DNA of 44,664 nucleotides from the IMG/VR virus record IMGVR_UViG_3300002461_000491, positions 1 through 44,664 of that record; one strand, given 5' to 3'. The notes beneath the pieces were generated by a model. It ran no database searches. It was not told the origin of the DNA and worked only from the letters and a program-made list of their open reading frames with translations. Made by a program: the position numbers and the translations under genes. The DNA comes from a virus. Below, in pieces: positions 2,255 through 44,664 of this stretch (positions within the stretch are counted from its first letter, which is position 1; the number at the start of each line of letters is the position of its first letter).

Positions 2255-2375
2255 ATGCCGCCTGCCCAGGCGGAACAGCAGGCGCACGCGGCGGGTGAAC
2301 TCTGCCGGCTGCACCGCGTTGCCCAGCGTGCGCTGAACGATCCTCCGGGCCTGTTGCAGACCGGCGCGGGCTTGC

Positions 2376-2534: not shown

Positions 2535-2618
2535 GTGTTCGCTCCATCAAAGCGGCGCATGGTAGGCAGCGGCAGCCGGCGCGGCCGCATTGGTGGACAG
2601 GCGTGCAACGCGCGGGCA

Positions 2619-3412: not shown

Positions 3413-3419
3413 GGGTGGG

Positions 3420-15989: not shown

Positions 15990-18653
15990 TCAGGCAGCGC
16001 GGGCGATCCGGGCCGCAGCGCTGAACAGCACCAGGCTGGTGTTGGCGTTCTTGCGCTGGGTGGGGGTGTGGCACACGATGAACTGCTCGCCGTAGTTTTC
16101 ACGGGCGCCGACGAACATGCCGTTGTTGTCCCGCGCCTCCTCCAGGTTGTTCATCGAGAACGGCCGCATCATGCGGAAGCGGGTGTTGGCCCGCTCACCC
16201 ACCAGGATGCGCACGTCACCGGTGTTCAGGCCCGGCGCACGGGTGTTGAAGGCCGGGATGCCCTTGACCATGCCCACGCTGCCATCGGCGTTCAGACCCG
16301 ACCCGGGGCGCGACCCGTTGGCGGTGAAGGTGGTGGCCTGGCCCAAGGCGTTGTCCACCGCGCCGCTCATCAACAGCAGGTTGGCGGTGTAGTAGCGGTC
16401 GTTCTCCACCACCACCTTGCGCGCGCCGATGAAGTTGAGCACCCGGTCGTACACCGCCCCGATGGTGTCCGGCGACGCGCCAACGTCGATGTTGACCTTG
16501 CTGGCGTTGAGCGTGTAGGTGTAGGCCACGGTCAGCACCCAGCCGTTGGTGGGGGTGGCCAGAACGCCCAGCTCGTTCACAAAGCGGATCTCACCCAGGT
16601 TGTAGTCCATCACCCAGTACAGGCCGGCCGCCAGGGTGGTGCCGCTCACGTACTCGGAGCGAGCAACCGCGTTCAAGGTCACCGTGACGCCCTGCAGCGT
16701 GCTGCCAACCTGCACACCCTTCAGATCGAACACGCGGCGCGGCCGCACCACCGGGAACTGCGTCAGGATGAAGATCTTGTTGGTGCCGTTCACCTGCGCG
16801 GTCAGCGTGTCCGTGATGGTGGCGGTCAACGCCTCGTCGCTCGAGCGCAGCACCTCGTTCTGGATCACCGAGTCGGTGTCCTCACCCACGATGCGGATGA
16901 CGTTGCGGGTGTTCTCGGCCAGGGGGTCGAAGTCGATCGGGCTGCCACCCAGCAGGTACCGCATTTCGTTGCTGAGCTTGAAGCTCAGCTTCTGCGGGAT
17001 GGGGCGCGCCTCCTCGAACGTCTGGATCACGCCGGCACGCGGGATGGCCTGGTTCTCGTAGGTGCGGGCCTGGGACACGCCAGCGCCGGTGGTGTCACGG
17101 TAGCTGTACGGGATCTGCACCACCGCAGCAAAGTCCACCGTGCCCACGTTGACGAAGCTCAGGCCGACCATCTGGTACAGCGCTTCACGCAGCACAGTGC
17201 GCTCGAAGATGGCGGGCACACCCACGTCACCGCTGTTGCCGCTGCCGGCGGCCAGCATCTTGTGCTCATTGGACAGGCGGGCACCGTGAATCAGGTCAAA
17301 GTGCGCCAGCGCCTTCTCGGCAAAGGCCTTGTTGTGCGCCAGAAGCTGGCCACCGGTGCGGGCGTAGCGCTCGGCATCGGGCATGCCAACGATGCCCAGG
17401 CGCCGGTCGACCTGCTCCTGCAGAGCCTTCACCTGGTTGCCGGATTCGACCGTGATGTGCACGCTGCCGGAAGCCGGGCGAAAGCCCAGCGTGGCCAGCT
17501 GCTGGGCGGCACTGACCTGCGTGTACTTGGTGATGGCGAACTCGGCCAGGCGCTTCACCTGGTCGTCGCTCAGTTCCTTGGTCACCAGGGGCTGCAGCTC
17601 GGCCACCAGGGCGGTCTTCACCTCGTCGGCAATGCTGGGCGCGGCGGCCACGGTGTCGCTCAGCAGCTTGACCTTGCCGGCCAGGGCGGTGGCGGCCTCG
17701 GTGGCGGTGGCGGCCTGCTGGGCCAGCACGCGGCCCACCTCGGCCTGCACGGCGGTGGCGTCCATGCCTGCGCCGACCTGCAGGTTGATCACCGGGGCCA
17801 GTTGTGCACCGCCAGGGGCGGCCAGCGCCTTCAGCTGGGTGTGCAGGGCCTGGCCAGCGGCGCAGAACGTGTCCACCATCGCCAGGCACTTGGTGTCGTC
17901 AGCGGCTGCGGCTTCCAGCTGCTTCAGCGCAGCGTCGAGGATGGGTTGGCACTGCGCTTCAGTCAGGCCCAGGGCCAGCAGTTTTTCGCGCAGGGCCTTC
18001 AGGTGCTTGTTCATGGTGTCGATCTCCGTCAGGGTCTTCAGCAGGGATGGGTGGATGGCCAACTTGGCCGTGTCGTCGTCGGGGTCGGCTGTGCCGTCGT
18101 GGCTCAGCTGCACAGGGTCCAGGTTCTTGACCACGGGGCGCGTGGTCAGCCCGGCGCCCAGCAGCACGCAGCCGTGGGCGTTGCCCTTCTCGTTGTCGCG
18201 CCAGTCCTCGTGGTACTCGGCGCTCAGGTAGGAAAAACCGCGCTTCTTGACGGCATCGATCCCGAAGTCCGTCCACTCCACCAGTGCGCGCAGGCGGCCG
18301 TTGTCCACGGCCAGCTTGACCACGCGGCAGGCGGCACCGTCACTGGGCTTGTGCGCCACGTCGAAGAACACGTCCTGTCCCAGAACGCGGCCGTCGAAGT
18401 TGCTCACCATCTGCGCCAGCATGGCCGGCGTGATGTCGAAAGCCCCATACCGTGGGTCAGTGAAGGTGCCCGTCCGGGTCACCGTCACCCACGATGTCTT
18501 CGCGCCATCGGCCAGCGTGATGGGCAGGGAGAGAAACCTCACCCGGCCCGGCGCGCCGTTGTCTTCTGCCAAGAAGATGTGGCGCGCCACCGCGGGGCAG
18601 CGCGCCACGAACTCGGCAAGCCGAGGAGACATGTGCAGGGATTGGTGGTGCAT
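15990..18653 (-). CDS. Fused prohead protease (Mu gpI-like) - scaffold - major capsid protein, 887 aa
   Basis: Residues 1-200 look like the Mu-like prophage I protease family (FFDVAHKPSDGAACRVVKLAVDNGRLRALVEWTDFGIDAVKKRGFSYLSAEY...LTTRPVVKNL). Residues about 215-430 are Ala/Leu/Gln-rich coiled coil. Residues about 430-887 are capsid-like. There is no stop codon in 2.66 kb. An alternative ATG is at 18632. Confidence 0.65.
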   Translation of the reverse strand: MHHQSLHMSPRLAEFVARCPAVARHIFLAEDNGAPGRVRFLSLPITLADGAKTSWVTVTRTGTFTDPRYGAFDITPAMLAQMVSNFDGRVLGQDVFFDVAHKPSDGAACRVVKLAVDNGRLRALVEWTDFGIDAVKKRGFSYLSAEYHEDWRDNEKGNAHGCVLLGAGLTTRPVVKNLDPVQLSHDGTADPDDDTAKLAIHPSLLKTLTEIDTMNKHLKALREKLLALGLTEAQCQPILDAALKQLEAAAADDTKCLAMVDTFCAAGQALHTQLKALAAPGGAQLAPVINLQVGAGMDATAVQAEVGRVLAQQAATATEAATALAGKVKLLSDTVAAAPSIADEVKTALVAELQPLVTKELSDDQVKRLAEFAITKYTQVSAAQQLATLGFRPASGSVHITVESGNQVKALQEQVDRRLGIVGMPDAERYARTGGQLLAHNKAFAEKALAHFDLIHGARLSNEHKMLAAGSGNSGDVGVPAIFERTVLREALYQMVGLSFVNVGTVDFAAVVQIPYSYRDTTGAGVSQARTYENQAIPRAGVIQTFEEARPIPQKLSFKLSNEMRYLLGGSPIDFDPLAENTRNVIRIVGEDTDSVIQNEVLRSSDEALTATITDTLTAQVNGTNKIFILTQFPVVRPRRVFDLKGVQVGSTLQGVTVTLNAVARSEYVSGTTLAAGLYWVMDYNLGEIRFVNELGVLATPTNGWVLTVAYTYTLNASKVNIDVGASPDTIGAVYDRVLNFIGARKVVVENDRYYTANLLLMSGAVDNALGQATTFTANGSRPGSGLNADGSVGMVKGIPAFNTRAPGLNTGDVRILVGERANTRFRMMRPFSMNNLEEARDNNGMFVGARENYGEQFIVCHTPTQRKNANTSLVLFSAAARIARAA

Positions 18654-18733
18654 GGCGGGCCGATGATCGGCCGCCCACCGGTGACGTTTGAAGGGGTGGG
18701 TTATGCGCCGACAGGCCTGTGCGGCGGCCGGCG

Positions 18734-19012
18734 CTAAGGGCGCTGGTCTGCGGTCTGCACAGTGTCAGCGTAGGCGCTGTCCTGCTGGTCCCACCAGCTG
18801 GCTGGCATGGGCTGGGCTTCAGCCACGTTCTGCCAGCGCCGGCCATCCCACAGGGTCAGCACGCGCCCGCCGTCACCCAGCACGCGCCACACGGCGCCGG
18901 TGGCATGGGCCAGCATGGTGGCGGCCTGTTGCACGCGCTGCGCATCGCCCAAAGGGTAAGCGGTGCCCACACTGCGCCAGCCGCTGGTGGTGTAGTGCTG
19001 CAGGATCAGCAT
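18734..19012 (-). CDS. Hypothetical protein translationally coupled to the integrase (92 aa)
   Basis: Its ATG at 19012 overlaps the integrase stop (ATGCTGA). Composition is plausible, with no recognisable motif. Confidence 0.45.
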   Translation of the reverse strand: MLILQHYTTSGWRSVGTAYPLGDAQRVQQAATMLAHATGAVWRVLGDGGRVLTLWDGRRWQNVAEAQPMPASWWDQQDSAYADTVQTADQRP

Positions 19013-20034
19013 GCGGCTGCCTGGTCAGACATCGGCACACGCTTCCAGTCGTTGCGCGACAAGCCCCGGTCATTGAGGTAGATCTCGGTAATCTCGATGT
19101 CGCTGTGGCCCAGCAGGGTCTGCAACACCTTGCGGTCCAGGCCCTGGGCCTCGTAAGTGCGGGCAGCAAGCGACCGGGTTTCATGCAAGCTGGGCCGCTT
19201 GTGCGTGCCGGGGTCCTTGTCTCCCAGCACGGCCTTGATGTGCTGGCAGAACCTGGCCGACAGGCTGCTGATCTCAATCGGCCGGCCGCTGGCTTGGCGC
19301 AACAGCGTGGGCCCTGGCTTGGCCGACTGGCGGCAGTGCTCGATCACGTCACCCACCGTCATGCCGATGCAGTCCATGCGCAGCGTCAGCGGGATCTCTA
19401 CTCGGGCGCCGTAGCCCTTGCCGGCTTCCTTCTGTTGCTCGATGCGCAGGTGCCCGTCCACCACATCGTCGAACCGCACCTTGCCCAGGTCGGCGCGGCG
19501 CTGGCCGATGGCCAAGCCCAGCAGCAGCATCGACTCGACCCAGCGCTGCGGGCAGGCCTGGGCCAGCGTGCGCATTTGCATCCAGACCTCGAGCTCCAGC
19601 CGCTCGCGCATCACCTTGTGCTTTGGCGGCTTGATGTCGCGCGCCGGGTTTGTCTCGGCCCAGCCGTTGGCGATCGCCTCGACGTAGGCGTCGCGCAGCT
19701 CGGACAGCACGCGCACCGCCGTGCTGCTCTTCTCCTTTGGGAATGTGCGCAGCGCGCTGGCCACCGCGTGTGGCTTCAGCTCGGCGATCGGCACCGTGCC
19801 CCACAGCCGCCGGACATGCGCCAGGTTGCTGCGGCGGTTCTTGATCGTCTGGGCCTTGTAGCCCCGGGTCAGCAGGATGCCGTCGTGCATGTCCAGCCAG
19901 TCGGCCAGTGTGCGGGCCGCTGCGATCGGCTGCGCTGTCGGCACAGCCGCAGGTGCGGGCAGGCCACCAGCCGGCAGCATGCGCAGGGCCTGCGCCATCA
20001 TTTCCAGCATGCCGGCCAGGTCGGCCGGAGTCAT
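19006..20034 (-). CDS. int: Tyrosine integrase, lambda/phage-integrase family
   Basis: 342 aa carrying the catalytic signatures GQRRADL (Arg), HETRSLAAR (HxxR) and LLGHSDIEITEIYL (His...Tyr). Confidence 0.85.
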   Translation of the reverse strand: MTPADLAGMLEMMAQALRMLPAGGLPAPAAVPTAQPIAAARTLADWLDMHDGILLTRGYKAQTIKNRRSNLAHVRRLWGTVPIAELKPHAVASALRTFPKEKSSTAVRVLSELRDAYVEAIANGWAETNPARDIKPPKHKVMRERLELEVWMQMRTLAQACPQRWVESMLLLGLAIGQRRADLGKVRFDDVVDGHLRIEQQKEAGKGYGARVEIPLTLRMDCIGMTVGDVIEHCRQSAKPGPTLLRQASGRPIEISSLSARFCQHIKAVLGDKDPGTHKRPSLHETRSLAARTYEAQGLDRKVLQTLLGHSDIEITEIYLNDRGLSRNDWKRVPMSDQAAAC

Positions 20035-20055
20035 GCTGATTCTCGGGTTGGTTCC

Positions 20056-20084
20056 ATCCTTTTATTGAATCACCGCAAAAGGAT
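20056..20084. promoter_or_regulatory. Inverted repeat in the AT-rich int / small-gene divergent region
   Basis: ATCCTTTT (20056-20063) and AAAAGGAT (20077-20084) form a perfect 8-bp inverted repeat with a 13-nt spacer. It abuts a TTGACA hexamer at 20085-20090. Confidence 0.45.
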
Positions 20085-20114
20085 TTGACAACCCCCGATT
20101 TGCGTGATGCAACA

Positions 20115-20306
20115 ATGAATGACATGAACAGCGAACCAAAAAGCAAACGCGGGCGGCCCTTCAAGTCAGACGAACAGAGGCTGGTGCAACGCTCAATCAG
20201 GCTGCTGCCGTCACAGTGGGCCAAGTACGACGCGGCGGGAGGCATCGAATGGCTTCGCGGGCTGATCGATCGCTCGAAGCCGAAGACGCCGCCGGACAAG
20301 GGTTGA
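20115..20306 (+). CDS. Small basic DNA-binding-like protein (63 aa), candidate excisionase/regulator
   Basis: ATG at 20115 (MNDMNSEPKSKRGRPFKSDEQRLVQRSIRLLPSQWAKYDAAGGIEWLRGLIDRS). The track start at 20085 is a TTG that coincides with the TTGACA hexamer. It is divergent from int. No family was recognised. Confidence 0.4.
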   Translation: MNDMNSEPKSKRGRPFKSDEQRLVQRSIRLLPSQWAKYDAAGGIEWLRGLIDRSKPKTPPDKG

Positions 20307-20337
20307 AGCACTCCGGGTGCACCTATGGGGGCTTGGA

Positions 20338-20544
20338 TCAGGCTTCGGCCGGTTCGCGGTAGCCGACAGGCATGGTGTAGTGCCGCGCCAAACTGTCGTG
20401 CTGGCAGTCTTTGCCGATGCCGTAGCACAGCCAGCACTGCGAGCCGCTGCAGGCGGTGCAGCCATCCTGATTTGCGGGCGACCACTCGCACCCGCCGTAG
20501 ATCAGGCCGGGCTCATAGCCGGTCAGGTTGCTGAGGCTGTTCAT
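20338..20544 (-). CDS. Cysteine-rich small protein (68 aa, 6 Cys)
   Basis: ATG at 20544 gives MNSLSNLTGYEPGLIYGGCEWSPANQDGCTACSGSQCWLCYGIGKDCQHDSLARHYTMPVGYREPAEA. The Cys spacing is C-x9-C-x2-C-x4-C-x2-C-x6-C. It starts 27 nt after the upstream stop. Confidence 0.5.
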   Translation of the reverse strand: MNSLSNLTGYEPGLIYGGCEWSPANQDGCTACSGSQCWLCYGIGKDCQHDSLARHYTMPVGYREPAEA

Positions 20545-20570
20545 GTCGGGTGTCACCTCTGGGGATGGGG

Positions 20571-21062
20571 TCAGCCGGCCGGGTGCTTCACCGGCAGCGC
20601 GGCCAGTCGCCTGTACTTCTCGGGCGTGTCGTGGCCGTCCCACTTGCCGGTGTAGGCCGGCAGGTCGGCGAACAGGTACGCCTGCGAGTCGTGGAAGTGC
20701 CAGGACGCCTGCCCGGTCGGCAAGTCGATGTAGACGCAGCCGTGCCAGTCTTCCGACCACCCCTCGATGGCCGTCCGCGCCACGCCTGACGGGTACGCCT
20801 TCGCCAGCGCGGCCACCACCTGGTTGCGTTCGAGGTAGGCCGCATCCTTGCGGGCCTCCATGTCCTTCAGCGCGTCACCGCCTGGCGTCGGGTACAGGTC
20901 GGCGTGCAGCACGTCAGATCCGCAGCCACGGCAGCGCCACAGCGAGCGCTTGCCGCCGCGCTGGTTGATTTCGTCGCCGTGGATGTTGCGCACGAAGTCG
21001 AACTCCAGGTGCTGGCAGAGCAGGCGGCGGATGAAGGTCAGGAGGGCCATAGGCAAGTGCAC
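20571..21062 (-). CDS. Conserved phage protein with ASWH...WDGH C-terminal motif
   Basis: 159-163 aa (GTG at 21062 or ATG at 21050). The sequence includes WRCRGCGSDV, then TGQASWHFHDSQAYLFADLPAYTGKWDGHDTPEKYRRL. I recall a phage WDGH-motif domain family, but this is unverified. Confidence 0.5.
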   Translation of the reverse strand: MHLPMALLTFIRRLLCQHLEFDFVRNIHGDEINQRGGKRSLWRCRGCGSDVLHADLYPTPGGDALKDMEARKDAAYLERNQVVAALAKAYPSGVARTAIEGWSEDWHGCVYIDLPTGQASWHFHDSQAYLFADLPAYTGKWDGHDTPEKYRRLAALPVKHPAG

Positions 21063-21077
21063 CGGCAGGGGATGGGA

Positions 21078-23834
21078 TCAGACCTCGATCAGCCAGAAAT
21101 AGCTGTTCTCGTCGGCTGTGCGCACCGTGCAGACAAAGCCGGTGGCATCGGTCAGCAGGGAGCGCGGCGCAGCGCGCTTGACCCCAGCACGGTTCAGCGC
21201 CGAGACACGCGGGCGGCCCTTGGCTGTCTGCACAACCTTGAGCGTGGCCGCCACGTCGCTGGCCTGGATGGGGTAATCGCCACCTCCGCCCGCCGCGATG
21301 GTCTTGCGCGTGGCGTCGGTGAACGCCATGCCGGTGTTCTGGCTGTCGCCGGCCAGCCCAATCAGCAGCTTGCGCGACAGGCCGATGTCCAGTCCATCCA
21401 GGCTGGTGACGAACATCGATGCATCGGTGGTCAGCGCGTCGATACGCACATTGCCGAACGTCACCGGCAGCGAGGCCCCGACGTGGCTGAAAAACACCGT
21501 GCGGGCGGTGTTGATCCAGGTTTGCTTAGTGCGCCGCGACCAGCCCCATTGCAGGTTGCCGGCCACCACCACGTTGGCGCCCTCGGACCAAGTGCCTGCC
21601 GAAAGTGCGCCGCTAGCCGCGGCAAAGCTCGCGCTTGTGATCTGCACGAAGTCGCCGGTGCCCTTGGTGATCGTCAGCGGCCCGTTGCGCAGTCCGGTGC
21701 CCGGCCAAGTGCCCGAAGCCCCTGTGATGTTGGAAATGAAGATCACGTCGCCAGTCACCAGCGTGTTGCCGGTGAGCGTGAGCACCGGCGACCCTTGGGT
21801 GGCGGTGAGACCGCCCACAGTGCCGGTGAAGGCGATGGCCGCGATATTGCCGCTGTTGGCTGTCACGCTCACCAGCGTTGGGTGATCTGCCGCGATGGCG
21901 CCGGCTGCCTGCGCTTCACTGGCAAGCGTGGAGAGCTGCTTCGGATTCCAAGTTGCAGCCAGCGCGTCGTCGGTGGTGTCATCGGTCCAATCGACGCCCG
22001 CACGGCGCAGAGCCGCGATGAAGTAAAGCGGCTGCAACAGCGTGAACATTGAGCGCGCCGGCCGCGCCGTGTTCACCGGATTGGTGCCGTAGTGCCGCTC
22101 GTTCAGCAGAATCTGCTGGCGCTTGGTGACGTCCATCGGCGACACATCGCCCCGCAGCATCAGCGCGGCCAGCATCACCCGCACGAAATCGTTGGTGACG
22201 TTGCCGGGGCAGTGGTACGGCTCGATGCGGCGCAGCCGGTTGCCGTGCGTGGTCGTGTCGTTGAAGTAGTCAAGCGCAAAGACGTCACCCTGGGCAAAGT
22301 GGGTCATGTACTGGCTGTCGTGGGTGCGCGTCACTGCCGCCATCACCGGGAACTGCGCCATGTACTTGCACCAGGCCGGCCACCCGTACTCGGCAGCGAC
22401 GAAGGGTTTGTTGTTGTTCAGCAGCGACGGCATCAGCATCGCGTTTTCGTAGTCCCAGATGGGCGAATTCCCCTGTGGGGCCAGCATGGTGCTGCCGTCT
22501 GCAATGCCGTTGTTGATCACGGTGCTGTAAGCGTGCGGCGCGTAGACCTGATTGATCGGGTACTTGCCGTAGCCTCGGCCCTCCAGCAGCGTGTGATAAA
22601 TCTCCGACCACCAGGTGATGCCGGGGAATCCCAGCGCAGTGATCTGTGCACTGAAGAAAGCGGCGAGGTCATCCTCCAGGTACTGCGCGTACTTGACCGC
22701 ATCGACGGCCTGGCGCGTGGACGGAAAGCTGGTGTTGAACGGGGGAACCGTCACCGCAGCAGCGACAGCAAACGATGCGTGAGCGCTGCCCCAGGCAGTA
22801 TTGAGGGCGGCCAAGTTCGCGTAGCCGTGCGACTTGGCGGAATCGCTCAGCCACTCCACCCAGGTCTGCGCCGCAGGCGTACTGCCGCCGGTGCGAGTCA
22901 GCCAGACTGAAGGGAACTGCACCTGGGCGCAGAACGTGGTGGACTGCTCGTTGAAGACCGACACCGCCAGCATGGCGGGGTCTTGCAACATGTTCAGCCC
23001 GGTGTAGGGGTTCACACGGTTCAGCAGCGCGCTGACGCCTGCGGTCCAGTTGGCGCGAATGTTTGCCTCGGTATACATGCGAGGCTTGGCGCTGCTGGCT
23101 TCGGTGTAGGTAAACCGGTTCGTTGCGCCGTCCATGTCCAAGAACAGGTTGTAGCTCTGGACGTTGAACACCCAAAAGATGCCCACTCGCTTCAGTTCGG
23201 ACAGGAAGAAGTCGAACAGGTCCAGCCGCGCAGGATTGAAGATGGCTGCGCCATCGATCCCAGCCATGAGCCAGTTTTCGACACCATGAATGCGCAGCCC
23301 GTTGTAACCCTGCCGGGCAAGGTTCTCGGCCGCAGCAGTCACCGCTGCGCGGTCGCTCGGGATTGGCGCGAAGGTGGTGTCGGGCGCCCAGGATGCGACG
23401 TTGAAACGCACCTCGACGCCAGCCTCATGCAGCTTGGTGCCGCTGACGGTGACCCGGCCACGGCTTCCAGCTGGCGTGGCGGTGGTACGCCACGTTGACA
23501 GGTCCAGCGCCCCAAGGGGTGCAATGGCGAGGGATTCGTCCTCCAGCGGTAGCCGGGCATTGGCAAAAGTTGCGGGCGCCACCTGCTGAGAACGAATCCC
23601 ACCCTCTGACACCAGGGCTAGAGCTTGGGCGGCCTGGGCCTCAGGCATCAGCCCGTAGCGCTGACCATCCACCTCGATCACCGGGTCCTTGCCGGCCTCA
23701 TCGATGACAGTCAGCGCAGGGTTTCGCGGAAGCGCTGCGCCATCGTCGACGAAGACGCCATCCCCGGGCAGCACCATGCGGCCGTCGATCGGCCGTGGCC
23801 GGCTGGTGGTGTTGGCGACCCAGATCTTGCCCAT
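21078..23834 (-). CDS. Large clan GH-A (GH5-like) glycoside hydrolase-like protein, candidate polysaccharide depolymerase
   Basis: ATG at 23834 is preceded by AGGAG with a 5-nt spacer (the track start at 23867 is upstream of it). The sequence shows GYNGLRIHGVENW, LAVSVFNEQS (the Asn-Glu acid/base motif, Glu codon 22947-22949) and FVAAEYGW (candidate nucleophile Glu, codon 22389-22391). A beta-rich tail of about 350 aa follows. GC3 is lower than in the core genes. Confidence 0.55.
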   Translation of the reverse strand: MGKIWVANTTSRPRPIDGRMVLPGDGVFVDDGAALPRNPALTVIDEAGKDPVIEVDGQRYGLMPEAQAAQALALVSEGGIRSQQVAPATFANARLPLEDESLAIAPLGALDLSTWRTTATPAGSRGRVTVSGTKLHEAGVEVRFNVASWAPDTTFAPIPSDRAAVTAAAENLARQGYNGLRIHGVENWLMAGIDGAAIFNPARLDLFDFFLSELKRVGIFWVFNVQSYNLFLDMDGATNRFTYTEASSAKPRMYTEANIRANWTAGVSALLNRVNPYTGLNMLQDPAMLAVSVFNEQSTTFCAQVQFPSVWLTRTGGSTPAAQTWVEWLSDSAKSHGYANLAALNTAWGSAHASFAVAAAVTVPPFNTSFPSTRQAVDAVKYAQYLEDDLAAFFSAQITALGFPGITWWSEIYHTLLEGRGYGKYPINQVYAPHAYSTVINNGIADGSTMLAPQGNSPIWDYENAMLMPSLLNNNKPFVAAEYGWPAWCKYMAQFPVMAAVTRTHDSQYMTHFAQGDVFALDYFNDTTTHGNRLRRIEPYHCPGNVTNDFVRVMLAALMLRGDVSPMDVTKRQQILLNERHYGTNPVNTARPARSMFTLLQPLYFIAALRRAGVDWTDDTTDDALAATWNPKQLSTLASEAQAAGAIAADHPTLVSVTANSGNIAAIAFTGTVGGLTATQGSPVLTLTGNTLVTGDVIFISNITGASGTWPGTGLRNGPLTITKGTGDFVQITSASFAAASGALSAGTWSEGANVVVAGNLQWGWSRRTKQTWINTARTVFFSHVGASLPVTFGNVRIDALTTDASMFVTSLDGLDIGLSRKLLIGLAGDSQNTGMAFTDATRKTIAAGGGGDYPIQASDVAATLKVVQTAKGRPRVSALNRAGVKRAAPRSLLTDATGFVCTVRTADENSYFWLIEV

Positions 23835-23841
23835 TGCGGCT

Positions 23842-23876
23842 CCTGAAACGCGGGCGAAGTCCCGCACGGTTTCAGG
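23842..23876 (-). promoter_or_regulatory. 5' leader stem-loop overlapping the glycosidase Shine-Dalgarno
   Basis: The mRNA reads CCUGAAAC-cgu-GCGGG-acuucg-CCCGC-GUUUCAGG-AGccgcaAUG. This is 13 bp of stem with a 3-nt bulge, and the 3' arm contains the first three bases of AGGAG. Confidence 0.5.
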
Positions 23877-23918
23877 ATTGGGCTTGTCCTCTCAGGACAT
23901 TTGCACCCCTGCGCGCAG

Positions 23919-25517
23919 TCACGCGGCCAAGCGCTGCAGCCTCAGCTCGACGGTTCGCAGCAAGCCCGGAACGGGGAGCCATCCATGCTTGCTACGAACC
24001 GAGGTCCCATCCATCTGGATGAGGCACTCGGGCTTGTAGCTCACCACCAGGTCGACGTCGTTGACCACGATGTGGTCGACGATGGTGGCAATGAATGCTC
24101 GCAGCGTCGGCAAGTCCTTGGCGCCTGTGATCGCCTGCCGCATCAGCGAGGCTGCCTCGTCAGCTGACACCCTCGCATCACCCACCACGGGCTCCTGCTC
24201 GTCTTCGATCGCCACCAGCGCATTCTCCAGCCGGCGGATCTGTGCGCTCAGTTCATTGACTCGCGTCATCGTGGGGGCCAAATCCGGGGTATCGCGGCCA
24301 GCGGCCTCCAGGATGTCGAACAGCTTGCCGCGGCGCTGCTCAGCGCTGCGCAGCTCGAGCACCATGGCCGTGCGCCGGCTCGCACGGTCCTTCACCCAGC
24401 GCGCCGCAGCCTCATCAAGGCCGTCCAACACGCGCTGGATGACATCCACGTTCAGCACCAGGTCGAGAAGGTCGGACAGCATGCGCTGGTCGAACGCATC
24501 GGCAGGTACAGGCTTGAACGCGCATGGCTGGCCTTGGTTGTGAGCACGGCAGGCGTAGTAGTGGTAGAGCCTGCCAGCTCGGCCCGTGCCATTGGTCATT
24601 TGCAGCGACGATCCGCAGTTTCCGCACTGCATCAACCCGGCAAACACGTGCTGAGCGGTGTGCGGCGGCCTGCCCTTGCCCGGAGTGCGCCCTGTCAGCG
24701 CCGATTGCACCTGGTTGAAGTCGTCGCCCGCCAGCAAAGGCGGGTGAGCCTGCACCCGGATCCACTGGTCTTCTGCCCGCTCGGCCTTGGTCTTGCGGTT
24801 GAACCTGTTGTAGATCACGCGTCCCATGTACACCTCGTTCTTCAGCAGGTAGAGCACGCTGTTCTTGCTCCATTTCTTGCCACGCATAGTCACGCCCTGA
24901 CCGTTCAGGCCCAGCGCGATGCCATATGCCCCTTGCCCCTCCAGCGACTGCCGGAAGATCATCCGCACGATCTCGGCCTCATGGCCCAGCGGCACCAGCC
25001 GATGGCGCCGCCCATCATCAGCCTGCACAGCCTGGTAGCCAAAGGGCACCCTGCCGCCCATGAAGTACCCCTCGCGGGCCGCCTTGATCATGCTGCGCTT
25101 GGTGTCGGCCGAAACCTGGCGTGAATAGCCCTCGTCCATCACCTGCTGGATGCTGTCGAGCATCCAGCCTTCCATGGTCTCCAGGTCCAAGCTGGAGTGG
25201 GCATAGACCAGCTTGGTGCGGTGGCTGGCCAGCTCGCGCTTGTAGGTAATGGCGTCGTGCTGGTCGCGTGCAAACCGACTGCTGCTCCAGCACACCATGA
25301 AGTTAATGTCGCCGGCGCTGCAGCGGTTGATGGCAGCCCGGAAGCCCGGCCGGGCGTCGGTGGTGCCGCTGATGCCGTCGTCACGATAGACCTGCAGCAC
25401 CACCGCGCCGAGCTCGGCGGCCTTGTGCTGGCAGGCGTCAATCTGGCTGTCGATCGAAAGCCCCTCTTCGGCCTGGCGCTCAGTGCTCACGCGGGCGTAC
25501 ACGATCGCTCGCTTCAT
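23919..25517 (-). CDS. Large serine recombinase (phage serine-integrase type)
   Basis: ATG at 25517 gives MKRAIVYARVSTERQ (catalytic Ser motif), a resolvase domain, a recombinase domain, a zinc ribbon (CGNCGSSL...YYACRAH) and a C-terminal coiled-coil region. About 532 aa. Confidence 0.85.
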   Translation of the reverse strand: MKRAIVYARVSTERQAEEGLSIDSQIDACQHKAAELGAVVLQVYRDDGISGTTDARPGFRAAINRCSAGDINFMVCWSSSRFARDQHDAITYKRELASHRTKLVYAHSSLDLETMEGWMLDSIQQVMDEGYSRQVSADTKRSMIKAAREGYFMGGRVPFGYQAVQADDGRRHRLVPLGHEAEIVRMIFRQSLEGQGAYGIALGLNGQGVTMRGKKWSKNSVLYLLKNEVYMGRVIYNRFNRKTKAERAEDQWIRVQAHPPLLAGDDFNQVQSALTGRTPGKGRPPHTAQHVFAGLMQCGNCGSSLQMTNGTGRAGRLYHYYACRAHNQGQPCAFKPVPADAFDQRMLSDLLDLVLNVDVIQRVLDGLDEAAARWVKDRASRRTAMVLELRSAEQRRGKLFDILEAAGRDTPDLAPTMTRVNELSAQIRRLENALVAIEDEQEPVVGDARVSADEAASLMRQAITGAKDLPTLRAFIATIVDHIVVNDVDLVVSYKPECLIQMDGTSVRSKHGWLPVPGLLRTVELRLQRLAA

Positions 25518-25584
25518 TCCACCCACCTTATCGCCAAGCCCTGGCGCGCGCCAATGAATCGGCCGCCGGTTTCAATCAATGCAG

Positions 25585-26133
25585 TCATCCAGCCGCCCTG
25601 GCCCGACCGGCTGCAGCCAACCGCTTGATGTGCCGGTAGCTGAGCTTTTCCCCCAGGTCCTTGTGCACCATCGCGTGGATGTCGCTGGGCTTGATGCCGG
25701 CCTGCACCAGGGTGGCGATGTACCGATTTCGCTGATACCGCTCGAAGGCTCGGAAGGGCCGCAGGCGCAGCTCGATCTGGTCGTCATCGTTGCGCAAGGC
25801 CGGGTCGGCGGAAAGCAGGCGCCACATGGCCACAAACTGCTCATAGCCCAGCAGCTGCGCCACAGACAGCCACGTGGCCGACAGGCCGATTTCGGCCAAT
25901 TCGCGCAGACGCACGTCGGCGCGAAGTTCTGAAGCAGTGCATCCGTTCAGGTACCCACCTCCCCACGGACGCACCGCCATGGTGCGCTGCCGAGCCCCCA
26001 CCCCCTTTGCACCAATGCTGTGCGTTGCGCCATTTCGGTGCGTATTGGGGGGGATCAGCTCAGGGAACAGGTCCTGGTTGATGTCTGCGCTGGATCCACT
26101 GCGCGATTCAGCAGGCATGGCCGCTCCTCGCAC
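25585..26133 (-). CDS. Mor/C-like transcriptional regulator candidate (C-terminal HTH)
   Basis: 177-182 aa. ELAEIGLSATWLSVAQLLGYEQFVAMW...RPFRAFERYQRNRYIATLVQAGIKPSDIHAMVHKDLGEKLSYRHIKRL follows the layout of Mu Mor-family activators. The start is uncertain (26133 or 26118). Confidence 0.35.
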   Translation of the reverse strand: MRGAAMPAESRSGSSADINQDLFPELIPPNTHRNGATHSIGAKGVGARQRTMAVRPWGGGYLNGCTASELRADVRLRELAEIGLSATWLSVAQLLGYEQFVAMWRLLSADPALRNDDDQIELRLRPFRAFERYQRNRYIATLVQAGIKPSDIHAMVHKDLGEKLSYRHIKRLAAAGRARAAG

Positions 26134-26269
26134 CAGGTGCAGCAGGCCCGATCACTGCGTGATCTGACAGCAGGCGCAGTGCACCCTCCCGGTGCAATTT
26201 GTGTTGCCTAGATGAGTTAGCCCGGGTTGTAACAGAGTTTGGGAGTTGCTCGGAATCGTCCTGCGACAT
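26108..26269 (-). CDS. Possible small ORF (53 aa) overlapping the Mor-like gene start
   Basis: ATG at 26269 is preceded by AAGGAA with a 6-nt spacer (MSQDDSEQLPNSVTTRANSS...). It is in a different frame from 25585..26133. It could be a separate gene or a sign of a frame error. Confidence 0.3.
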   Translation of the reverse strand: MSQDDSEQLPNSVTTRANSSRQHKLHREGALRLLSDHAVIGPAAPGARSGHAC

Positions 26270-26365
26270 CGATGTTTCCTTGGTGTGCGTGAACGGAGCC
26301 CAGCACCGCTCTAGGGGTTGTGTGGCCGGCCGGGTTGCGGATGCATCCATGGATCGACCCCTGGC

Positions 26366-27373
26366 CTATAGGCGCTTGAGCACTTCGCTGACGGGGCTGG
26401 TCATCTTCGACAGCGGCCCGCTGGCGTCGAGCACCTTGGTCTTGCGGCGCATGCTCATGGCCGTGTAGATGGCTGTGCTCTTGGGGTCGACGTGGCCCAG
26501 CAGCTCCTGCCGGGTGATCAGGTCCACGTTGTCCTCGGCCAGCTCCACACCGAAAAGGTGGCGGAAGGCGTGCGGGTGCCGCTCATCGGCAGGCACCCCG
26601 GCCTTCTCGCCGTGGCGCTGGATGATCCGCCACACCGCTCCACGCGACAGGCGCACCGCCTCGCCTCGCCACAGGTGCGCGGGCACCCGGCTGTTGACGG
26701 TCTGCACGAACAGCACCTTGTCCGGGCGCCCATGCTTGTCCAGGATGTCGCGGTCGTAGGCCTTCAGGCCCTCGTGGTCCAGGTAGATGCGCAGCAGCAT
26801 CTCTGCCTCCCTAGGCACGGGCAGCATGCGCTCCTTCTCGCCCTTCTCGGTCACGCGGATCACCAGGCGCGTCTTGCCGTCGACGTCGCTGTTGCGCAGA
26901 TCTCCCTCATCCAGGCCTACCAGCCCGCCGACACGCAGGCCGCAGCCCAGCAGCAGCGACAGCAGTGCCGCATCTCGAATCCCGATGAACGTGTTGAGGT
27001 CAGGGGCCCACATCAGCTTTTCGGCGCTGGCCAGGCTCAGTGCCTGGGGCAGCGGCATGCCGGTCTTGGGGTGCTCCAGCTGGTGGGATGGGTCGTGCTC
27101 GATGTGGCCACGGCCGCGCGCCCAACCGTAGAACCCGCGCAGCGCGCTGATGTACGGCTTGCGACTGCGGGCCACCACGCCACGCTTGTGCAGCCAGATC
27201 CCGCTAAACGCCTCGAGCTCGACGGCCGTCGCCTGCACCAGGCTCTTCTCGCCGGCAAGAAACTCCTGCAGCCTGGCCAGGGCCATGCCGTAGCTCTCAA
27301 GCGTGCGCGGCCGCCGGCCGCGGCTGGTCTCCAGGTGCTGCAGGAAGCCGCGGATGGCTTCGTCGTCGGTCAT
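26366..27373 (-). CDS. Xer-type tyrosine recombinase (335 aa)
   Basis: ATG at 27373 gives MTDDEAIRGFLQHLETSRGRRPRTLESYGMALARLQEFL (SAM-like N-domain). The catalytic signatures are GCGLRVGGL (Arg), HAFRHLFG (HxxR) and LLGHVDPKSTAIYT (His...Tyr). The 70 upstream codons of the track ORF run through the repeat region and were rejected. Confidence 0.8.
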   Translation of the reverse strand: MTDDEAIRGFLQHLETSRGRRPRTLESYGMALARLQEFLAGEKSLVQATAVELEAFSGIWLHKRGVVARSRKPYISALRGFYGWARGRGHIEHDPSHQLEHPKTGMPLPQALSLASAEKLMWAPDLNTFIGIRDAALLSLLLGCGLRVGGLVGLDEGDLRNSDVDGKTRLVIRVTEKGEKERMLPVPREAEMLLRIYLDHEGLKAYDRDILDKHGRPDKVLFVQTVNSRVPAHLWRGEAVRLSRGAVWRIIQRHGEKAGVPADERHPHAFRHLFGVELAEDNVDLITRQELLGHVDPKSTAIYTAMSMRRKTKVLDASGPLSKMTSPVSEVLKRL

Positions 27374-27488
27374 CGTGGTCACAGGGTTCGGCCGGCTCGC
27401 TTGGGGGGACACAGGCATTCCACCAGTGGAAGCGTGGATCGGCAACACGTGGGGCGAAAAGCGCAATGCCGACAAGCACTTACCGCAA

Positions 27489-27781
27489 TGTGGCATCCAC
27501 GGAAAACCCGTGGATTGGCCCGCCGACCTGTGGTTACTTTTGCTTACCGTTTGTGCAACCTGTGGATGCAGCTCACTCGACACGCGGCCCTCTCTTTGCC
27601 TACTTTCCTTTTTGAATCAATGATTTAGAGAGAGAGAACAAGCGTGGGCAGCGGAATAGTCAATGTGGAGAAAAGCCGCCGACCTGTGGAAAAAATGGCC
27701 CAACCTGTGGAAGAACACTGCGCATTCCAAAGGGCTGTTTTGTTAGTAGATCAATGACTTACGGCATTTGTATCCACAGGT
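27489..27781. repeat. Noncoding array of ACCTGTGG / DnaA-box-like motifs (candidate origin, iteron set or att arm sites)
   Basis: CCGCCGACCTGTGG occurs at 27520-27533 and 27676-27689. CAACCTGTGGA occurs at 27556-27566 and 27701-27711. ATCAATGAyTTA occurs at 27616-27627 and 27750-27761. TATCCACAGGT (reverse orientation) is at 27771-27781. ATCCACGG aaaac CCGTGGAT is an inverted repeat at 27495-27515. An AT-rich stretch spans 27601-27640. Confidence 0.7.
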
Positions 27782-28101
27782 CCACGGGTTCTAGCGTGCG
27801 CCCCTGCCTTGCCATTCAAGAAAACAGCACGGTCGGCCCCCTGCCCTTCGGGTCTTCCCTGATCCAGGCCGGCAGGCTTCTGCGTGGTGGGGTGCGGGGA
27901 GCGGACGGCAGGCAACTGCCGCCGGCATCGTGTGCGGCGTGTGCCCGGGTAACCCGCGCTGGCGCTCTGGCCTGATGGCCAGATCGATCCAGGCGCGCCT
28001 AACGGCGCGCGGTCAATGGGGTGGTGGCCTGGCGGCCACCGGGCCTTGCAGGGCCGCCAACTGCGTCGGCGCCGTGCCTCGGCCGAACGGCCGCGTCGGC
28101 T

Positions 28102-29211
28102 TCAGATGCGGCCCTGGCGCGTCAGCCGCTGGCGCACGTCTGCCACCCGGCTGCGCACCATGCCGCGCGTCAGCAGGCCTTGGTCAAAGTAGGCCGCCTT
28201 GGTCGGGCCCAGCACGCCGGCGCGCAGCTCGGGCGCCAGCCTGGCCAGCGCCTGGTTGGTCGTCTCGATGCCGGCCCGGTCAGCGTCGGTCACCTCGTCC
28301 TCGAACACCGCCACCACAAAGCTCAAGGTGTTGGGGTGCGCTGGCCAGGGCGTGCGCTTGCGGTCGGGGTACACGCCAGCGCCCAGCCCGTGCAGGTTCT
28401 GGCGGGCCAGCAGGTCGCAGATGTCCGGGCGCGGGTGGCGCGGGCTCAGCAAGAACCGGAACCCCAGCACCGCACCAGACCTCTCGGCGCCGGCCATGTA
28501 CGCCTCGCCGTGGGCCCGGTTGATCTCTGTGCGCGCCACCCGCAGCGTGTTCGGCAGCGCGCCATTGTTCGGTTCCACGAGGTGGTCAGCACCGCGCAAC
28601 AGGTTGCCCACGGCTGATGCCTGCTGCGCTTGGGCGGTTGCCGCCGGCACCGCCTGCCCACGCAGCAGAAACTGCTGCGCCGCGGTGTCCGCGCTCCACC
28701 CCTGCACCACAGCCTGCTCCACCGTGCGGTGCACAGCCTCCCGGGCGCCACGGTCCACACGCCAAAGACGGTCACTCAGCACCAGGCCGTCGGCAGCCCT
28801 GAATGCCCGAACGAACTGCACCGCGTCGTCGACCAGGCGCAGCGCCTCGGCGCCGTCCAGCAGCGCCTCCACCTGGCGGCCGGTGGCCAGGATGCCGGCA
28901 GCCGTCAGCGGCCGCACGCCCAGCTCGGCCGCGCGCTCGATCGCGCCGTCCAGCAGCTGCGTGCGCAGGCTGGCCAGCGCGTCCAGCACCTGGTCGATGC
29001 GATCAAGCAACCCGCGCAGCTGGTCCAGCCGCACCTGCGCCCCACTGTCGGCCGCCTGGGCGATCGCCATGCGCACCTGCTCAGCCGCGTCTGAGTAGAT
29101 GCGCGTCAGCTCCGTCTCCGTCTCAGCATCCAGCTGCTGCATCTGGTTGCGCGCCTGCTGGCTGGCCCGGCGGATCGCCGCGCCCGTGCAGTCGGCCAGC
29201 AGCCGGGCCAT
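28102..29211 (-). CDS. Head morphogenesis protein, SPP1 gp7 / Mu F-like
   Basis: ATG at 29211 overlaps the portal stop (ATGA). 369 aa. VARTEINRAHGEAY matches the MuF-family signature. It is directly downstream of the portal gene. Confidence 0.7.
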   Translation of the reverse strand: MARLLADCTGAAIRRASQQARNQMQQLDAETETELTRIYSDAAEQVRMAIAQAADSGAQVRLDQLRGLLDRIDQVLDALASLRTQLLDGAIERAAELGVRPLTAAGILATGRQVEALLDGAEALRLVDDAVQFVRAFRAADGLVLSDRLWRVDRGAREAVHRTVEQAVVQGWSADTAAQQFLLRGQAVPAATAQAQQASAVGNLLRGADHLVEPNNGALPNTLRVARTEINRAHGEAYMAGAERSGAVLGFRFLLSPRHPRPDICDLLARQNLHGLGAGVYPDRKRTPWPAHPNTLSFVVAVFEDEVTDADRAGIETTNQALARLAPELRAGVLGPTKAAYFDQGLLTRGMVRSRVADVRQRLTRQGRI

Positions 29212-43969: not shown

Positions 43970-44002
43970 GGGGTTCTCCAATCGGGCGTGAAGGGGTGGG
44001 AG

Positions 44003-44658: not shown

Positions 44659-44664
44659 CAGGGC
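44571..44664. repeat. Terminal direct repeat, copy 2
   Basis: Identical to bases 1-94. A minus-strand ORF beginning at 44658 (equivalent to position 88) follows directly after the gene ending at 126, so gene order is continuous across the junction. Confidence 0.9.

Follow-up and report, generated by a model that had tools for sequence, protein, structure and literature searches.

The interval between the MuF-like and protease(-capsid) genes of this phage very probably holds the lysogeny-integration cassette of the phage together with adjoining cargo, both placed at a hypervariable junction between the two head genes. The block occupies positions 18654-28101 of the window, the whole 44,664-nucleotide stretch that was analysed, and consists of two parts: a conserved cassette at ~23.9-27.8 kb and window-specific cargo at ~18.7-23.8 kb. 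The genome is that of a circular phage of 44.57 kb in its attP (excised) form, and contains three intact site-specific recombinases within the block. The boundaries and gene content first described for the block hold, and the presence of three recombinases from two families, with a fourth elsewhere, is borne out by domain profile matches. The view of the earlier note that this number greatly exceeds the needs of a single temperate phage loses some force through the family-wide conservation of three of the four (the short tyrosine, XerD-like and large serine enzymes). The flanks and the conserved part contain the following features.

28102..29388, minus strand: MuF-like head-morphogenesis gene (phrog_1657, 6.5e-32), the upstream flank of the block
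27374/27413-28101: noncoding stretch that holds the TCCACRGGT array
27415..27790, minus strand: conserved array of ~10 TCCACRGGT sites
26366..27412, minus strand: XerD/XerC-like tyrosine recombinase (Phage_int_SAM_1 and Phage_integrase)
25585..26118, minus strand: o182, a conserved helical protein of 177 aa with a C-terminal HTH-like region
23919..25517, minus strand: large serine recombinase (LSR), phage integrase (Resolvase 9.9e-27, Recombinase 1.1e-21, Zn_ribbon_recom 4.6e-9; phrog_95 integrase 3.3e-105)
23952..24000, minus strand: attP of the LSR, a 49-bp quasi-palindrome, GGTTCGTAGCAAGC ... GCTTGCTGCGAACC, within the LSR 3' end
15990..18653, minus strand: head protease(-scaffold-capsid) ORF of 887 aa (N-terminal PF10123 Mu-like_Pro 8.7e-10; phrog_328 3.5e-13), the downstream flank

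The MuF-like gene is syntenic with TerL and portal in >50 relatives. Of the protease-scaffold-capsid assignment made earlier for the 887-aa ORF, the protease is sustained by PF10123 and phrog_328; neither sequence nor a single-sequence structure model confirmed a capsid in the C-terminal half, and it is the position of the ORF that suggests a capsid part. In the distant relatives L016/17, L025, L029, L044 and L048 the MuF and protease-capsid genes are only 240-600 bp apart, showing that the block is, as proposed, inserted relative to these phages. Among relatives other than those named below for the cassette, ~25 have the two genes side by side or with unrelated inserts of 0.24-5.9 kb between them. 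The junction is thus a hot spot, since distant relatives display adjacency or other inserts at this point. Homology to relatives is absent from ~23818 to ~18700, and a search of both block edges for the short direct repeats predicted as att scars found none.

The attP lies inside the last ~25 codons of the LSR gene and is conserved in all lineages, its 14-bp arms matching at 13/14 positions around a crossover core, TGGCTCC, at 23975-23981. Free and integrated forms are homologous exactly up to this core, where the integrated LSR 3' end is joined to tRNA-Asn in relatives of six independent origins (L006/7, L010, L013, L084, L085 and L061, the last being a Paucibacter genome). The reciprocal junction (attR) is found where the provirus L056 starts and also within L075, a contig of 158 kb. 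L075 provides the only host-side flank seen; as this flank is part of a different LSR element, sitting in tandem at that tRNA-Asn site, the left half of the original attB could not be rebuilt. The target is the extreme 3' end of the tRNA-Asn(GTT) gene, which is restored by phage sequence. A GAACC motif is located 25 nt from the core start in attP vs 20 nt in attB, consistent with the 5-bp inward shift of the outer (ZD-type) motif described for the attB sites of serine integrases (PMC3783163). The site architecture and its adjacency to the gene suggest that integration is catalysed by the LSR and not by a tyrosine enzyme. Of the explanations in the earlier note, an integration module is borne out, with a demonstrable att site; the genome contains one LSR attP. 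It should also be noted that the tRNA 3' end target and the two or three tyrosine recombinases present run against the LSR as integrator; such ends are, according to the Islander study, classic tyrosine-integrase targets (PMC4383910).

As the LSR would recombine the TGGCTCC core with the tRNA-Asn 3' end, the genome would be opened at attP in the lysogen. One end would then carry TerL-portal-MuF-array-XerD-like-HTH-LSR' and the other cargo-protease/capsid-tail. The MuF-like gene falls on the LSR-side prophage end and the 887-aa ORF on the cargo-side end, and the head genes would thus be contiguous in the excised circle only, lying at opposite ends of the prophage. Integration also swaps the C-terminal tail of the LSR: viral forms always terminate in -AA, while prophage forms acquire the tRNA-encoded GPTD. 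Nine viral-form tails, and one rebuilt from the L056 attR, end in -[K/R/L]AA; the preceding residues are divergent and the Ala codons differ. When translated, 4/4 integrated forms end in DLGSNQGPTD. The -AA tail may be a protease (ssrA-like) degron, a possibility suggested by the conserved two-residue terminus, in which case the stability of the integrase would depend on the integration state.

The Resolvase, Recombinase and zinc-ribbon architecture of the LSR is that of the phiC31, Bxb1 and Listeria A118/LI serine integrases, and a quasi-palindromic attP of ~50 bp with a short common core is likewise typical of large serine integrases of phages. Unlike these enzymes, the LSR described here contains attP inside its own 3' coding end, targets a tRNA gene 3' end that the phage regenerates, and in every case comes with a XerD-like recombinase, an HTH protein and a site array. 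The attB of myxophage Mx8 reportedly overlaps tRNA gene 3' ends. Its attP, as here, is located inside the integrase gene, and integration makes a new int 3' end (PMC6070905); Mx8 Int, in contrast to the LSR, is a tyrosine recombinase. In mycobacteriophage BPs and its relatives, which have integration-dependent immunity, attP is also inside a gene, from whose product a C-terminal ssrA-like degradation tag is lost on integration; the BPs integrase has a C-terminal proteolysis signal as well (PMC4557955). The split gene of BPs is the repressor and its integrase a tyrosine enzyme, whereas here the serine integrase itself is split, and the BPs tag has as its counterpart a degron proposed from the -AA terminus. 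The integration cassette of mycobacteriophage Giles is likewise among late genes, listed between those for virion structure and those for lysis (PMC5705681). It reportedly uses a tyrosine Int with Xis and lies between tail and lysis genes, in contrast to the location between two head-assembly genes observed here.

The site array, the XerD-like recombinase, o182 and the LSR with its attP form a conserved four-part unit. The gene order MuF, array, XerD-like, o182, LSR is kept in L002-L013, L035, L055 and L061. In L022, L034, L040 and L043 the unit is instead located upstream of o331-TerL; in L084/85 it is at the prophage end, behind the primase gene; and phage yong1 has it between its lysis genes and its early genes. 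The upper half of the block is hence not the foreign rider once envisaged but a family-wide cassette, present at this locus in every close relative and elsewhere in more distant ones. Its strong conservation may indicate functions beyond integration. o182 is the neighbour of the LSR in all contexts. Its AF2 model has a pLDDT >85 over residues 60-177, and Foldseek returned local matches to HTH DNA-binding domains alone, all above E 1. Searches of Pfam, PDB sequences and Foldseek returned neither Mor, which had been suggested for this gene, nor any other family. No homologue of a known RDF is present in this phage, and o182 is a candidate directionality factor of the LSR or cassette regulator. 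A small ORF listed earlier at 26108-26350 is doubtful, with weak conservation and no GC3 signal.

The 20-28 kb region is compositionally the most deviant part of the genome. Its GC content (0.637-0.645 vs 0.67-0.71) is the lowest of the window, and tetranucleotide deviation is highest here (z 1.7-2.4). Windowed composition confirmed the lower GC3 reported at roughly 20.0-27.8 kb, a genuine but modest effect (0.76-0.83 in the o182, LSR and 918-aa genes vs ~0.87 elsewhere). This atypical composition would fit a satellite or integrative island, or two such independent mobile elements, nested in the phage, with the recombinases serving the rider. The three positions of the cassette in related phages, indicating that it relocates as a unit, and the different LSR element in tandem at the tRNA-Asn site of L075 point the same way, as does the occurrence of a second-integrase unit (see below) in phages with different head and tail genes. 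We nevertheless consider nesting unlikely. The LSR attP marks the prophage ends, and these take in the whole phage rather than the block; most relatives show no other integrase, and therefore the LSR is the phage's own; direct repeats flank neither the block edges nor the second-integrase unit; and the block lacks replication, packaging-hijack and capsid-remodelling genes.

The array comprises tandem pairs with 8-nt spacing at both ends, oppositely oriented, three direct repeats spaced 21 bp apart, a CT/AT-rich centre and the palindrome ATCCACGGGTTTTCCGTGGAT. All 6 exact TCCACRGGT matches in the window are inside it (0.69 expected), and a whole-genome search found no second array. The sites are invariant across the 10 relatives of alignment A1 although the spacers diverge, while L043, L040 and yong1 retain the architecture with a different motif. 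The XerD-like gene, which is invariably accompanied by o182 and the LSR, starts at ATG 27412 (the JGI call, 348 aa) or ATG 27373 (335 aa); a 405-aa GTG ORF was rejected as over-extending into the array. Its product matches NCBIfam XerD at 1.8e-52 and 178 bits, under the cutoff of 330, and by inspection all three tyrosine enzymes possess the R..HxxR..H..Y residues. The enzyme may act on the upstream array or be regulated through it, with dimer resolution, or a control region in the array, as possible roles, and is probably not the one that performs chromosomal integration. With its inverted core and direct accessory copies of one motif, the array presumably resembles the single-recombinase multi-site resolution sites of Tn4430 TnpI/IRS and XerCD-dif/cer/psi and the iterons of P4 ori/crr. 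The likeness would extend to the position directly upstream of a Xer-like recombinase without an arm-binding domain and to the single locus per replicon. Unlike the Tn4430, XerCD and P4 sites, however, the array has ~10 sites over 375 bp, a CT-rich centre and linkage to an LSR, and it shares no sequence similarity with dif.

A possible, if doubtful, explanation is that the array is a replication origin, with iterons for a P4-alpha-like primase-helicase, or a res/dif-like site at which the XerD-like enzyme resolves genome dimers, the LSR being a mere neighbour. The direct and inverted 9-bp repeats, the 21-bp spacing and the AT/CT-rich centre are iteron-like, the palindrome could be a recombinase core (7-7-7), and one site per genome is what a resolution site would show. 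The array of L084 comes immediately after the primase gene, but the primase is 11 kb from the array here and ~11 kb away in yong1, and it is the XerD-like gene and LSR, not the primase, with which the array always travels. The cumulative GC skew has its maximum at ~23.5 kb, ~4 kb from the array, a pattern that yong1 does not reproduce. The motif would also suit a set of operators bound by the HTH protein or by the CP76-type CII.

The integration cassette is followed, from attP to the capsid gene, by lineage-specific cargo.

21078..23834, minus strand: 918-aa cargo protein, first gene after attP, variable among relatives
20571..21050, minus strand: WDGH-domain protein, 159 aa (PF25311 7.7e-6, 0.4 bit below cutoff; phrog_16023)
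20338..20544, minus strand: six-Cys ORF, 68 aa, also called in the independent contig L066
20317-20340: third copy of a 24-nt junction motif, after the six-Cys ORF
20124..20306, plus strand: basic ORF, 60 aa, divergent from the lambda-type integrase
19006..20034, minus strand: lambda-type tyrosine integrase, 342 aa (Phage_int_M and Phage_integrase; phrog_1 4e-34)
18734..19012, minus strand: orphan ORF, 92 aa, overlapping the integrase stop in ATGcTGA

The 918-aa protein has a lineage-conserved N-terminal module (residues 1-90), common to the post-attP genes of L052, L053 and L055, and a GH5-like (clan GH-A) glycosidase-type body (residues 95-570). The description of this protein as glycosidase-like stands on transitive support: some of the ~1900 homologues of the body match Pfam GH5 inside the homologous part, whereas the direct match, to a PDB GH5 mannanase, has an E value of 0.0028. 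Variable, compositionally atypical genes beside attP, which in a lysogen come to lie at the edge of the prophage, are reminiscent of morons or cargo such as the lambda b region. In contrast to that region, the first cargo gene couples its conserved module to carbohydrate-active bodies that have been swapped, much like a modular receptor-binding or virion protein, and the cargo genes are separated by the conserved junction motif. The WDGH-domain protein has no homologue in related loci.

It was conceivable that the recombinases invert or excise the glycosidase cargo, as in a phase-variation or shufflon-like switch, given that several of them adjoin a variable carbohydrate-active gene, that the short tyrosine recombinase is of the size of the FimB/E invertases (NCBIfam PRK09870, 4.5e-8) and that the array end pairs are inverted, ~350 bp apart. 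The whole genome, however, holds one array and one attP-like site. As no second recombination site flanks the cargo, such switching, put forward at the outset, finds no support and is very unlikely. Furthermore, long inverted or direct repeats are absent around the cargo, the array has the same orientation in 10/10 relatives of alignment A1, yong1, L043 and L084 keep array features beside the XerD-like gene, and cargo differs between relatives by replacement and not by inversion.

No relative of this phage carries the lambda-type integrase. The enzyme displays 81-86% aa identity to L062/L063, and the 1.26-kb unit that it forms with the basic ORF (20300-19037) is 84% identical in nucleotide sequence to the phage L062, whose head and tail genes are different. 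The separate acquisition proposed for the block thus holds for this unit, which, judged by that identity, was acquired horizontally. The basic ORF travels with the integrase, with copies 59-83% identical beside integrase homologues in L062 and L064/65; it has no family match in the profile search and is possibly a small DNA-binding protein. The second integrase may be a passenger or offer an alternative-site option. The 92-aa ORF is the last window-specific gene, and homology to relatives resumes at ~18700.

As the sequence derives from a metagenome contig (P0121), a chimeric assembly fusing two different elements was considered, and is highly improbable. The independent ENA contig L066 repeats the order from LSR through cargo and integrase to capsid at 99.7-100% identity, the MuF-to-LSR junction recurs in >10 relatives, and the contig self-closes through a 94-bp overlap.

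The fourth recombinase lies outside the block, in the early region.

43286..43981, minus strand: short tyrosine recombinase, 231 aa (Phage_integrase 3e-18), conserved in the family

Homologues of this enzyme are present in yong1 and L084, two genes from the CP76-type CII gene.

The window comprises the entire JGI metagenome contig P0121 (44,664 bases), in which positions 1-94 are identical to 44571-44664, an exact 94-bp terminal direct overlap indicating that the genome, 44,570 bp long, is a closed circle in its free (attP) form. The GC content is 68% and the minus strand carries nearly all of the genes, whose order runs from the early genes with a P4-alpha-like primase (38712-41525) through HNH genes, TerL, portal and a MuF-like gene to the block (18654-28101), and continues with an 887-aa head protease(-capsid) ORF, neck, tail, tape measure and tail fibre genes, and anti-repressor and CP76-type CII genes. 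Scans of IMG/VR, genomes and metagenomes yielded more than 80 related loci, which were mapped by tblastn. The relatives of the window are Burkholderiales prophages (Paucibacter, Roseateles and Rhodoferax), and the sole relative in GenBank, a distant one, is the 'Microcystis phage' vB_MaeS-yong1 (MT855965, hereafter yong1); megablast of the block against GenBank phages gave zero matches. The GC content of yong1 is 66.7% and every detectable relative is a Burkholderiales prophage, which makes the Microcystis host label look doubtful; the phage could instead infect a heterotroph associated with the Microcystis culture.

An earlier note described the interval between the MuF-like gene (ending at 28102) and the protease ORF (starting at 18653) as rich in recombinases, and a XerD-like tyrosine recombinase (26366-27412, minus strand), a large serine recombinase (LSR; 23919-25517, minus strand) and a lambda-type integrase (342 aa) do lie there, with a fourth recombinase, a short tyrosine enzyme at 43286-43981, outside the block. 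The other features named in the note likewise lie where it places them. The three tyrosine recombinases match PF00589 (2e-24, 2e-13 and 3e-18 for the 405/348-aa, 342-aa and 231-aa proteins, respectively) and, as read from the translations, all retain the R..HxxR..H/W..Y residues. The short enzyme (231 aa, FimB/E-sized) is located in the early region, two genes from the CP76-type CII gene, and is conserved in yong1 and in the related prophage L084, so phages of this family carry at least three recombinases each. The distinct composition claimed for the block is also borne out: nowhere else in the genome is GC as low or the tetranucleotide deviation as high (z 1.7-2.4) as in 20-28 kb. The LSR-cargo-integrase-capsid order recurs at 99.7-100% identity in L066, which was assembled independently (ENA), demonstrating that the block is not a chimera; it is a real finding, an insertion. 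Some gene calls required revision. The XerD-like gene and its upstream noncoding DNA are present as described, but the 405-aa GTG ORF over-extends and the start is the ATG at 27412 or 27373, giving a noncoding stretch of ∼690-730 bp; an 80-aa small ORF is doubtful. The C-terminal half of the 887-aa ORF, when queried for capsid identity with phmmer against PDB and PHROGs (E up to 1), matched nothing, and a single-sequence AF2 model of this ORF was unusable (pLDDT 29). Within the block Rfam (E up to 1) identified no tRNA fragment or ncRNA and a promoter/terminator scan returned nothing beyond shuffled expectation; ARAGORN found no tRNA in the window.

The gap between the MuF-like and protease genes is 240-600 bp in many distant relatives (L016/17, L025, L029, L044, L048), presumably the ancestral arrangement. 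Other relatives contain unrelated inserts of 1.3-5.9 kb at this junction, including genes for a DnaN-like protein, a SAP-domain protein and, in yong1, a DDE transposase; the occurrence of unrelated inserts at a single junction identifies it as a hot spot. In the window's closest clade this junction is occupied, in order, by a noncoding stretch of ∼0.7 kb, the XerD-like gene, o182 (a gene for a 177-aa protein with an HTH-like C-terminal region) and the LSR. The same ordered set lies upstream of o331-TerL (o331 being the gene that precedes TerL) in L022, L034, L040 and L043, at the prophage end, behind the primase gene, in L084/85, and between the lysis genes and the early genes in yong1, showing that this is a conserved cassette whose parts have relocated together. 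DNA homology between the window and its relatives extends from MuF to ∼23818, is lost, and returns at ∼18700, the intervening 5.1 kb being window-specific. The cassette itself accepts inserts, as in L010 (13735-14547), where a MuF-like paralogue displaying 45% identity to the C-terminal two thirds is located between o182 and the LSR, and in a Paucibacter prophage (L061:8973-9977) the o182-like sequence is duplicated in tandem, both copies being read as a single 339-aa ORF. Presence/absence polymorphism of the block exists, but its junctions are imprecise, the content being swapped piecemeal. A nested integrative element or satellite is not supported by direct repeats at the block edges, where, as around the 342-aa-integrase unit, searches for direct and inverted repeats gave only chance-level matches. 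Our preferred reading of the block is a relocatable serine-integrase cassette that belongs to the phage itself, together with attP-adjacent cargo, at a hot spot; this fits the data better than elements riding inside the phage or a recombinase-controlled cargo switch.

The LSR has the architecture of a serine integrase, comprising a resolvase catalytic domain with the catalytic Ser (PF00239, 9.9e-27; N-terminal YARVSTERQ motif), a recombinase domain (PF07508, 1.1e-21) and a zinc-ribbon domain (PF13408, 4.6e-9). In the genome of Paucibacter sp. Y2R2-4 an LSR homologue reads directly into a tRNA-Asn(GTT) gene, and the same LSR/tRNA-Asn junction is present in L006/7, L010, L013, L084 and L085. Sequence shared by the free and integrated forms stops exactly at TGGCTCC, which is complementary to GGAGCCA at the 3' end of the tRNA. 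The reciprocal junction, in which host-side sequence is followed by TGGCTCCCCGTTGTGGGCAAGCTGCGAACC, forms the first base of the provirus L056 and is also found within L075, a 158-kb contig. With at least nine free attP forms for comparison, the integrated junctions, which come from six sources, and both reciprocal junctions place the crossover precisely at this core. The attP of the window (23952-24000) is a 49-bp quasi-palindrome within the last ∼25 LSR codons, and consists of 14-bp arms, GGTTCGTAGCAAGC and GCTTGCTGCGAACC, separated by 21 bp that include the core TGGCTCC (23975-23981). The pattern GGTTCnnAG..TGGCTCCCCG..CTGnGAACC is kept in all lineages regardless of the position of the cassette. 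From the start of GAACC to the start of the core there are 25 nt in attP compared with 20 nt in the tRNA attB, a comparison made for the right half, the only half of attB recovered. This 5-bp inward displacement agrees with that described for the zinc-ribbon-domain motif in attB sites of serine integrases (PMC3783163), and the arms, 21 bp apart, are too distant for the core sites of a tyrosine recombinase; integration is thus assigned to the LSR, which, from these sequences, we infer to catalyse attP x attB integration. A caveat to this assignment is that tRNA 3' ends are the classic targets of tyrosine integrases (PMC4383910).

Genome engineering seeks serine integrases with native, conserved attB sites. 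The LSR adds a new mapped attP/attB pair with natural junctions from six independent sources, the target being the conserved 3' end of tRNA-Asn in Burkholderiales. L084 and L085 (13358-13433) contain the same prophage with an identical junction, but the neighbouring host genes differ between them and their tRNA-Asn sequences vary slightly; these are independent integrations, possibly in different hosts. On contig L075 (Ga0209572_1000137) a second, unrelated LSR (1439-4543; 554 aa, 33% identical) beside a weak Rep_trans-like ORF borders the prophage attR, meeting it at the same TGGCTCC core; one tRNA-Asn site therefore apparently carries two LSR elements in tandem.

The location of attP inside the LSR gene has consequences for the protein. 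Viral-form LSRs, nine of which were read directly and one reconstructed from the attR of L056, share 31-87% identity with the window LSR, and all ten terminate in -RLAA, -LRAA, -KRAA, -KKAA, -CKAA, -ARAA or -RRAA, with varied Ala codons. The four integrated forms that were translated all end instead in the tRNA-encoded DLGSNQGPTD. Comparison of the predicted proteins shows that the C-terminal tail of the LSR is swapped on integration, and the -AA ending would be an ssrA-like degron that integration removes. This apparent rewriting would make the serine integrase an integration-state switch. In phage Mx8 attP lies inside int and integration makes a new int 3' end (PMC6070905), and the rewriting of the LSR tail parallels the integration-dependent switches of Mx8 and of the BPs type, although the LSR belongs to another recombinase family, that of the serine enzymes. 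A literature search returned no described serine integrase with its own C-terminus rewritten by integration, or with attP in its own gene. Integration also opens the genome at attP, sending MuF and the cassette to one prophage end and the cargo and protease/capsid gene to the other, and the head genes are contiguous only once the prophage is excised. Head genes at opposite prophage ends will confuse boundary and completeness callers. The cumulative GC skew of the window has its maximum at ∼23500 and its minimum at ∼44000, its sign flipping near attP and again ∼20 kb away despite the co-oriented genes. A link of the cassette to the replication terminus, considered in view of the peak at ∼23.5 kb, was rejected, as yong1 does not reproduce the pattern.

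The XerD-like enzyme consists of a SAM-like and a catalytic domain, without an arm-binding domain. It scores 178.5 bits against the NCBIfam XerD equivalog (cutoff 329.6) and 165.5 against XerC (cutoff 335), and no dif-like site is present; the enzyme thus has a Xer-like architecture without being an orthologue of the XerC/XerD chromosome-dimer resolvases. Directly upstream of its gene is an array (27415-27790) of ∼10 copies of TCCACRGGT. Exact matches to this motif number six in the genome, compared with 0.69 expected, and all fall in the array. Both array ends consist of tandem pairs with 8-nt spacing, oppositely oriented between the ends, while the interior contains three direct repeats at 21-bp spacing, a CT/AT-rich centre and the palindrome ATCCACGGGTTTTCCGTGGAT. 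Aligning ten relatives shows invariant sites separated by diverged spacers. Distant cassettes display the same layout with other motifs, ATCCCCGTGT in L043, CTTGCCCCC in L040 and GTTCCACG in yong1, and this co-variation points to a phage-encoded binding protein. The array can be read as an operator array for the cassette operon, as a res/IRS-like resolution site for the XerD-like enzyme, or as an iteron origin. Neither a second array motif nor a second attP was found elsewhere in the window genome, and the single array per genome, with no partner site, excludes an inversion/excision pair; the recombinase-run inversion or excision of cargo that had been suggested is therefore not supported.

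The o182 protein (25585-26118, minus strand) had been proposed to be a Mor-like regulator, an assignment for which no test run provided a match. Its family (11 members) matched nothing in Pfam even at E 1, the single protein had no match there at E up to 5, its profile retrieved nothing from PDB sequences, and Foldseek of an AF2 model with a confident C-terminus returned no PDB match below E 1 and no Mor. A Mor/C activator (PF08765 or the Mor fold) was thus rejected, and the only hint of Mor is the GenBank label of the yong1 homologue, 'middle operon regulator'. Structure comparison revealed no recognisable relatives of the protein, which is helical, its C-terminal helices matching HTH DNA-binding domains weakly and locally. 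Residues 1-56 are predicted to be disordered, yet GVGxRQ and GGGGY are (nearly) invariant across homologues that are 34-86% identical, which suggests a conserved interaction or modification site.

Integration modules and morons are known kinds of phage element. What is unusual here is the position between head genes, the attP within the gene of a serine integrase that targets a tRNA and has its C-terminus swapped, and the conserved combination of a XerD-like enzyme, an HTH protein and a site array; a literature search for a described pairing of tyrosine and serine recombinases in phages yielded nothing specific. It is possible, if rather unlikely, that the array, the XerD-like enzyme, the HTH protein and the LSR with its internal attP form an undescribed, self-contained relocatable cassette of Burkholderiales siphophages, in which the LSR, unstable in the viral form (-AA degron), would become stable in the prophage through its own tRNA-Asn integration, and the XerD-like enzyme and array would serve a second dedicated function, either cassette moving or dimer resolution. 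If this were true, placement in the head operon would make the continuity of the capsid genes dependent on excision. The uncharacterised partnership of XerD-like enzyme, co-varying array, HTH protein and LSR could point to an accessory role, so far unrecognised, of the integration modules of temperate phages.

The cargo gene that comes first after attP codes for a 918-aa protein. Its residues 1-90 are common to the first post-attP genes of L052 (505 aa), L053 and L055 (578 aa), the bodies of which differ, whereas residues 95-570 have ∼1900 homologues to which varied N-termini are fused. The protein has no direct Pfam match; it matches a GH5 mannanase in PDB at residues 210-308 (E 0.0028), and some homologues of its body match Pfam GH5 inside the homologous segment (P0328: PF00150, 4.5e-7). 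This modular pattern resembles that of virion depolymerases or receptor-binding proteins and would be equally compatible with a lysogenic-conversion enzyme. PADLOC gave no defence-system matches for the cargo ORFs. A 24-nt motif starts at the stop codon of three consecutive cargo genes (3/3), as follows.

Copies of the motif TGAYCCNAYCCCC..GGTGMAC in the cargo
21057-21080, minus strand, first copy
∼20548-20573, minus strand, second copy
20317-20340, minus strand, third copy

Similar 26-34-nt motif matches are found at the ends of cargo genes in L052, L063 and L064/65, and the motif could mark a junction for module exchange or be a stop/RBS linker that the genes share. The third copy abuts a 1.26-kb unit (20300-19037) comprising a small basic ORF and the 342-aa integrase. 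For this integrase no attP is definable in the window; regarding integrated forms of its family, in L064 (an 83-kb contig) phage genes lie on both sides of the integrase, and in L068 the integrase is near a host-like GGDEF gene, with no definable junction. The unit, which is absent from all relatives of the window phage, displays 84% DNA identity to one in L062, and the integrase protein is 65-86% identical to those in L063-L065. On this basis we read it as a probable second-hand integration unit. The capsid genes of phages L062-L065 are of HK97 type and their tail genes are lambda-like; there too the unit is located within the structural cluster, downstream of cargo that encodes an esterase or lysozyme.
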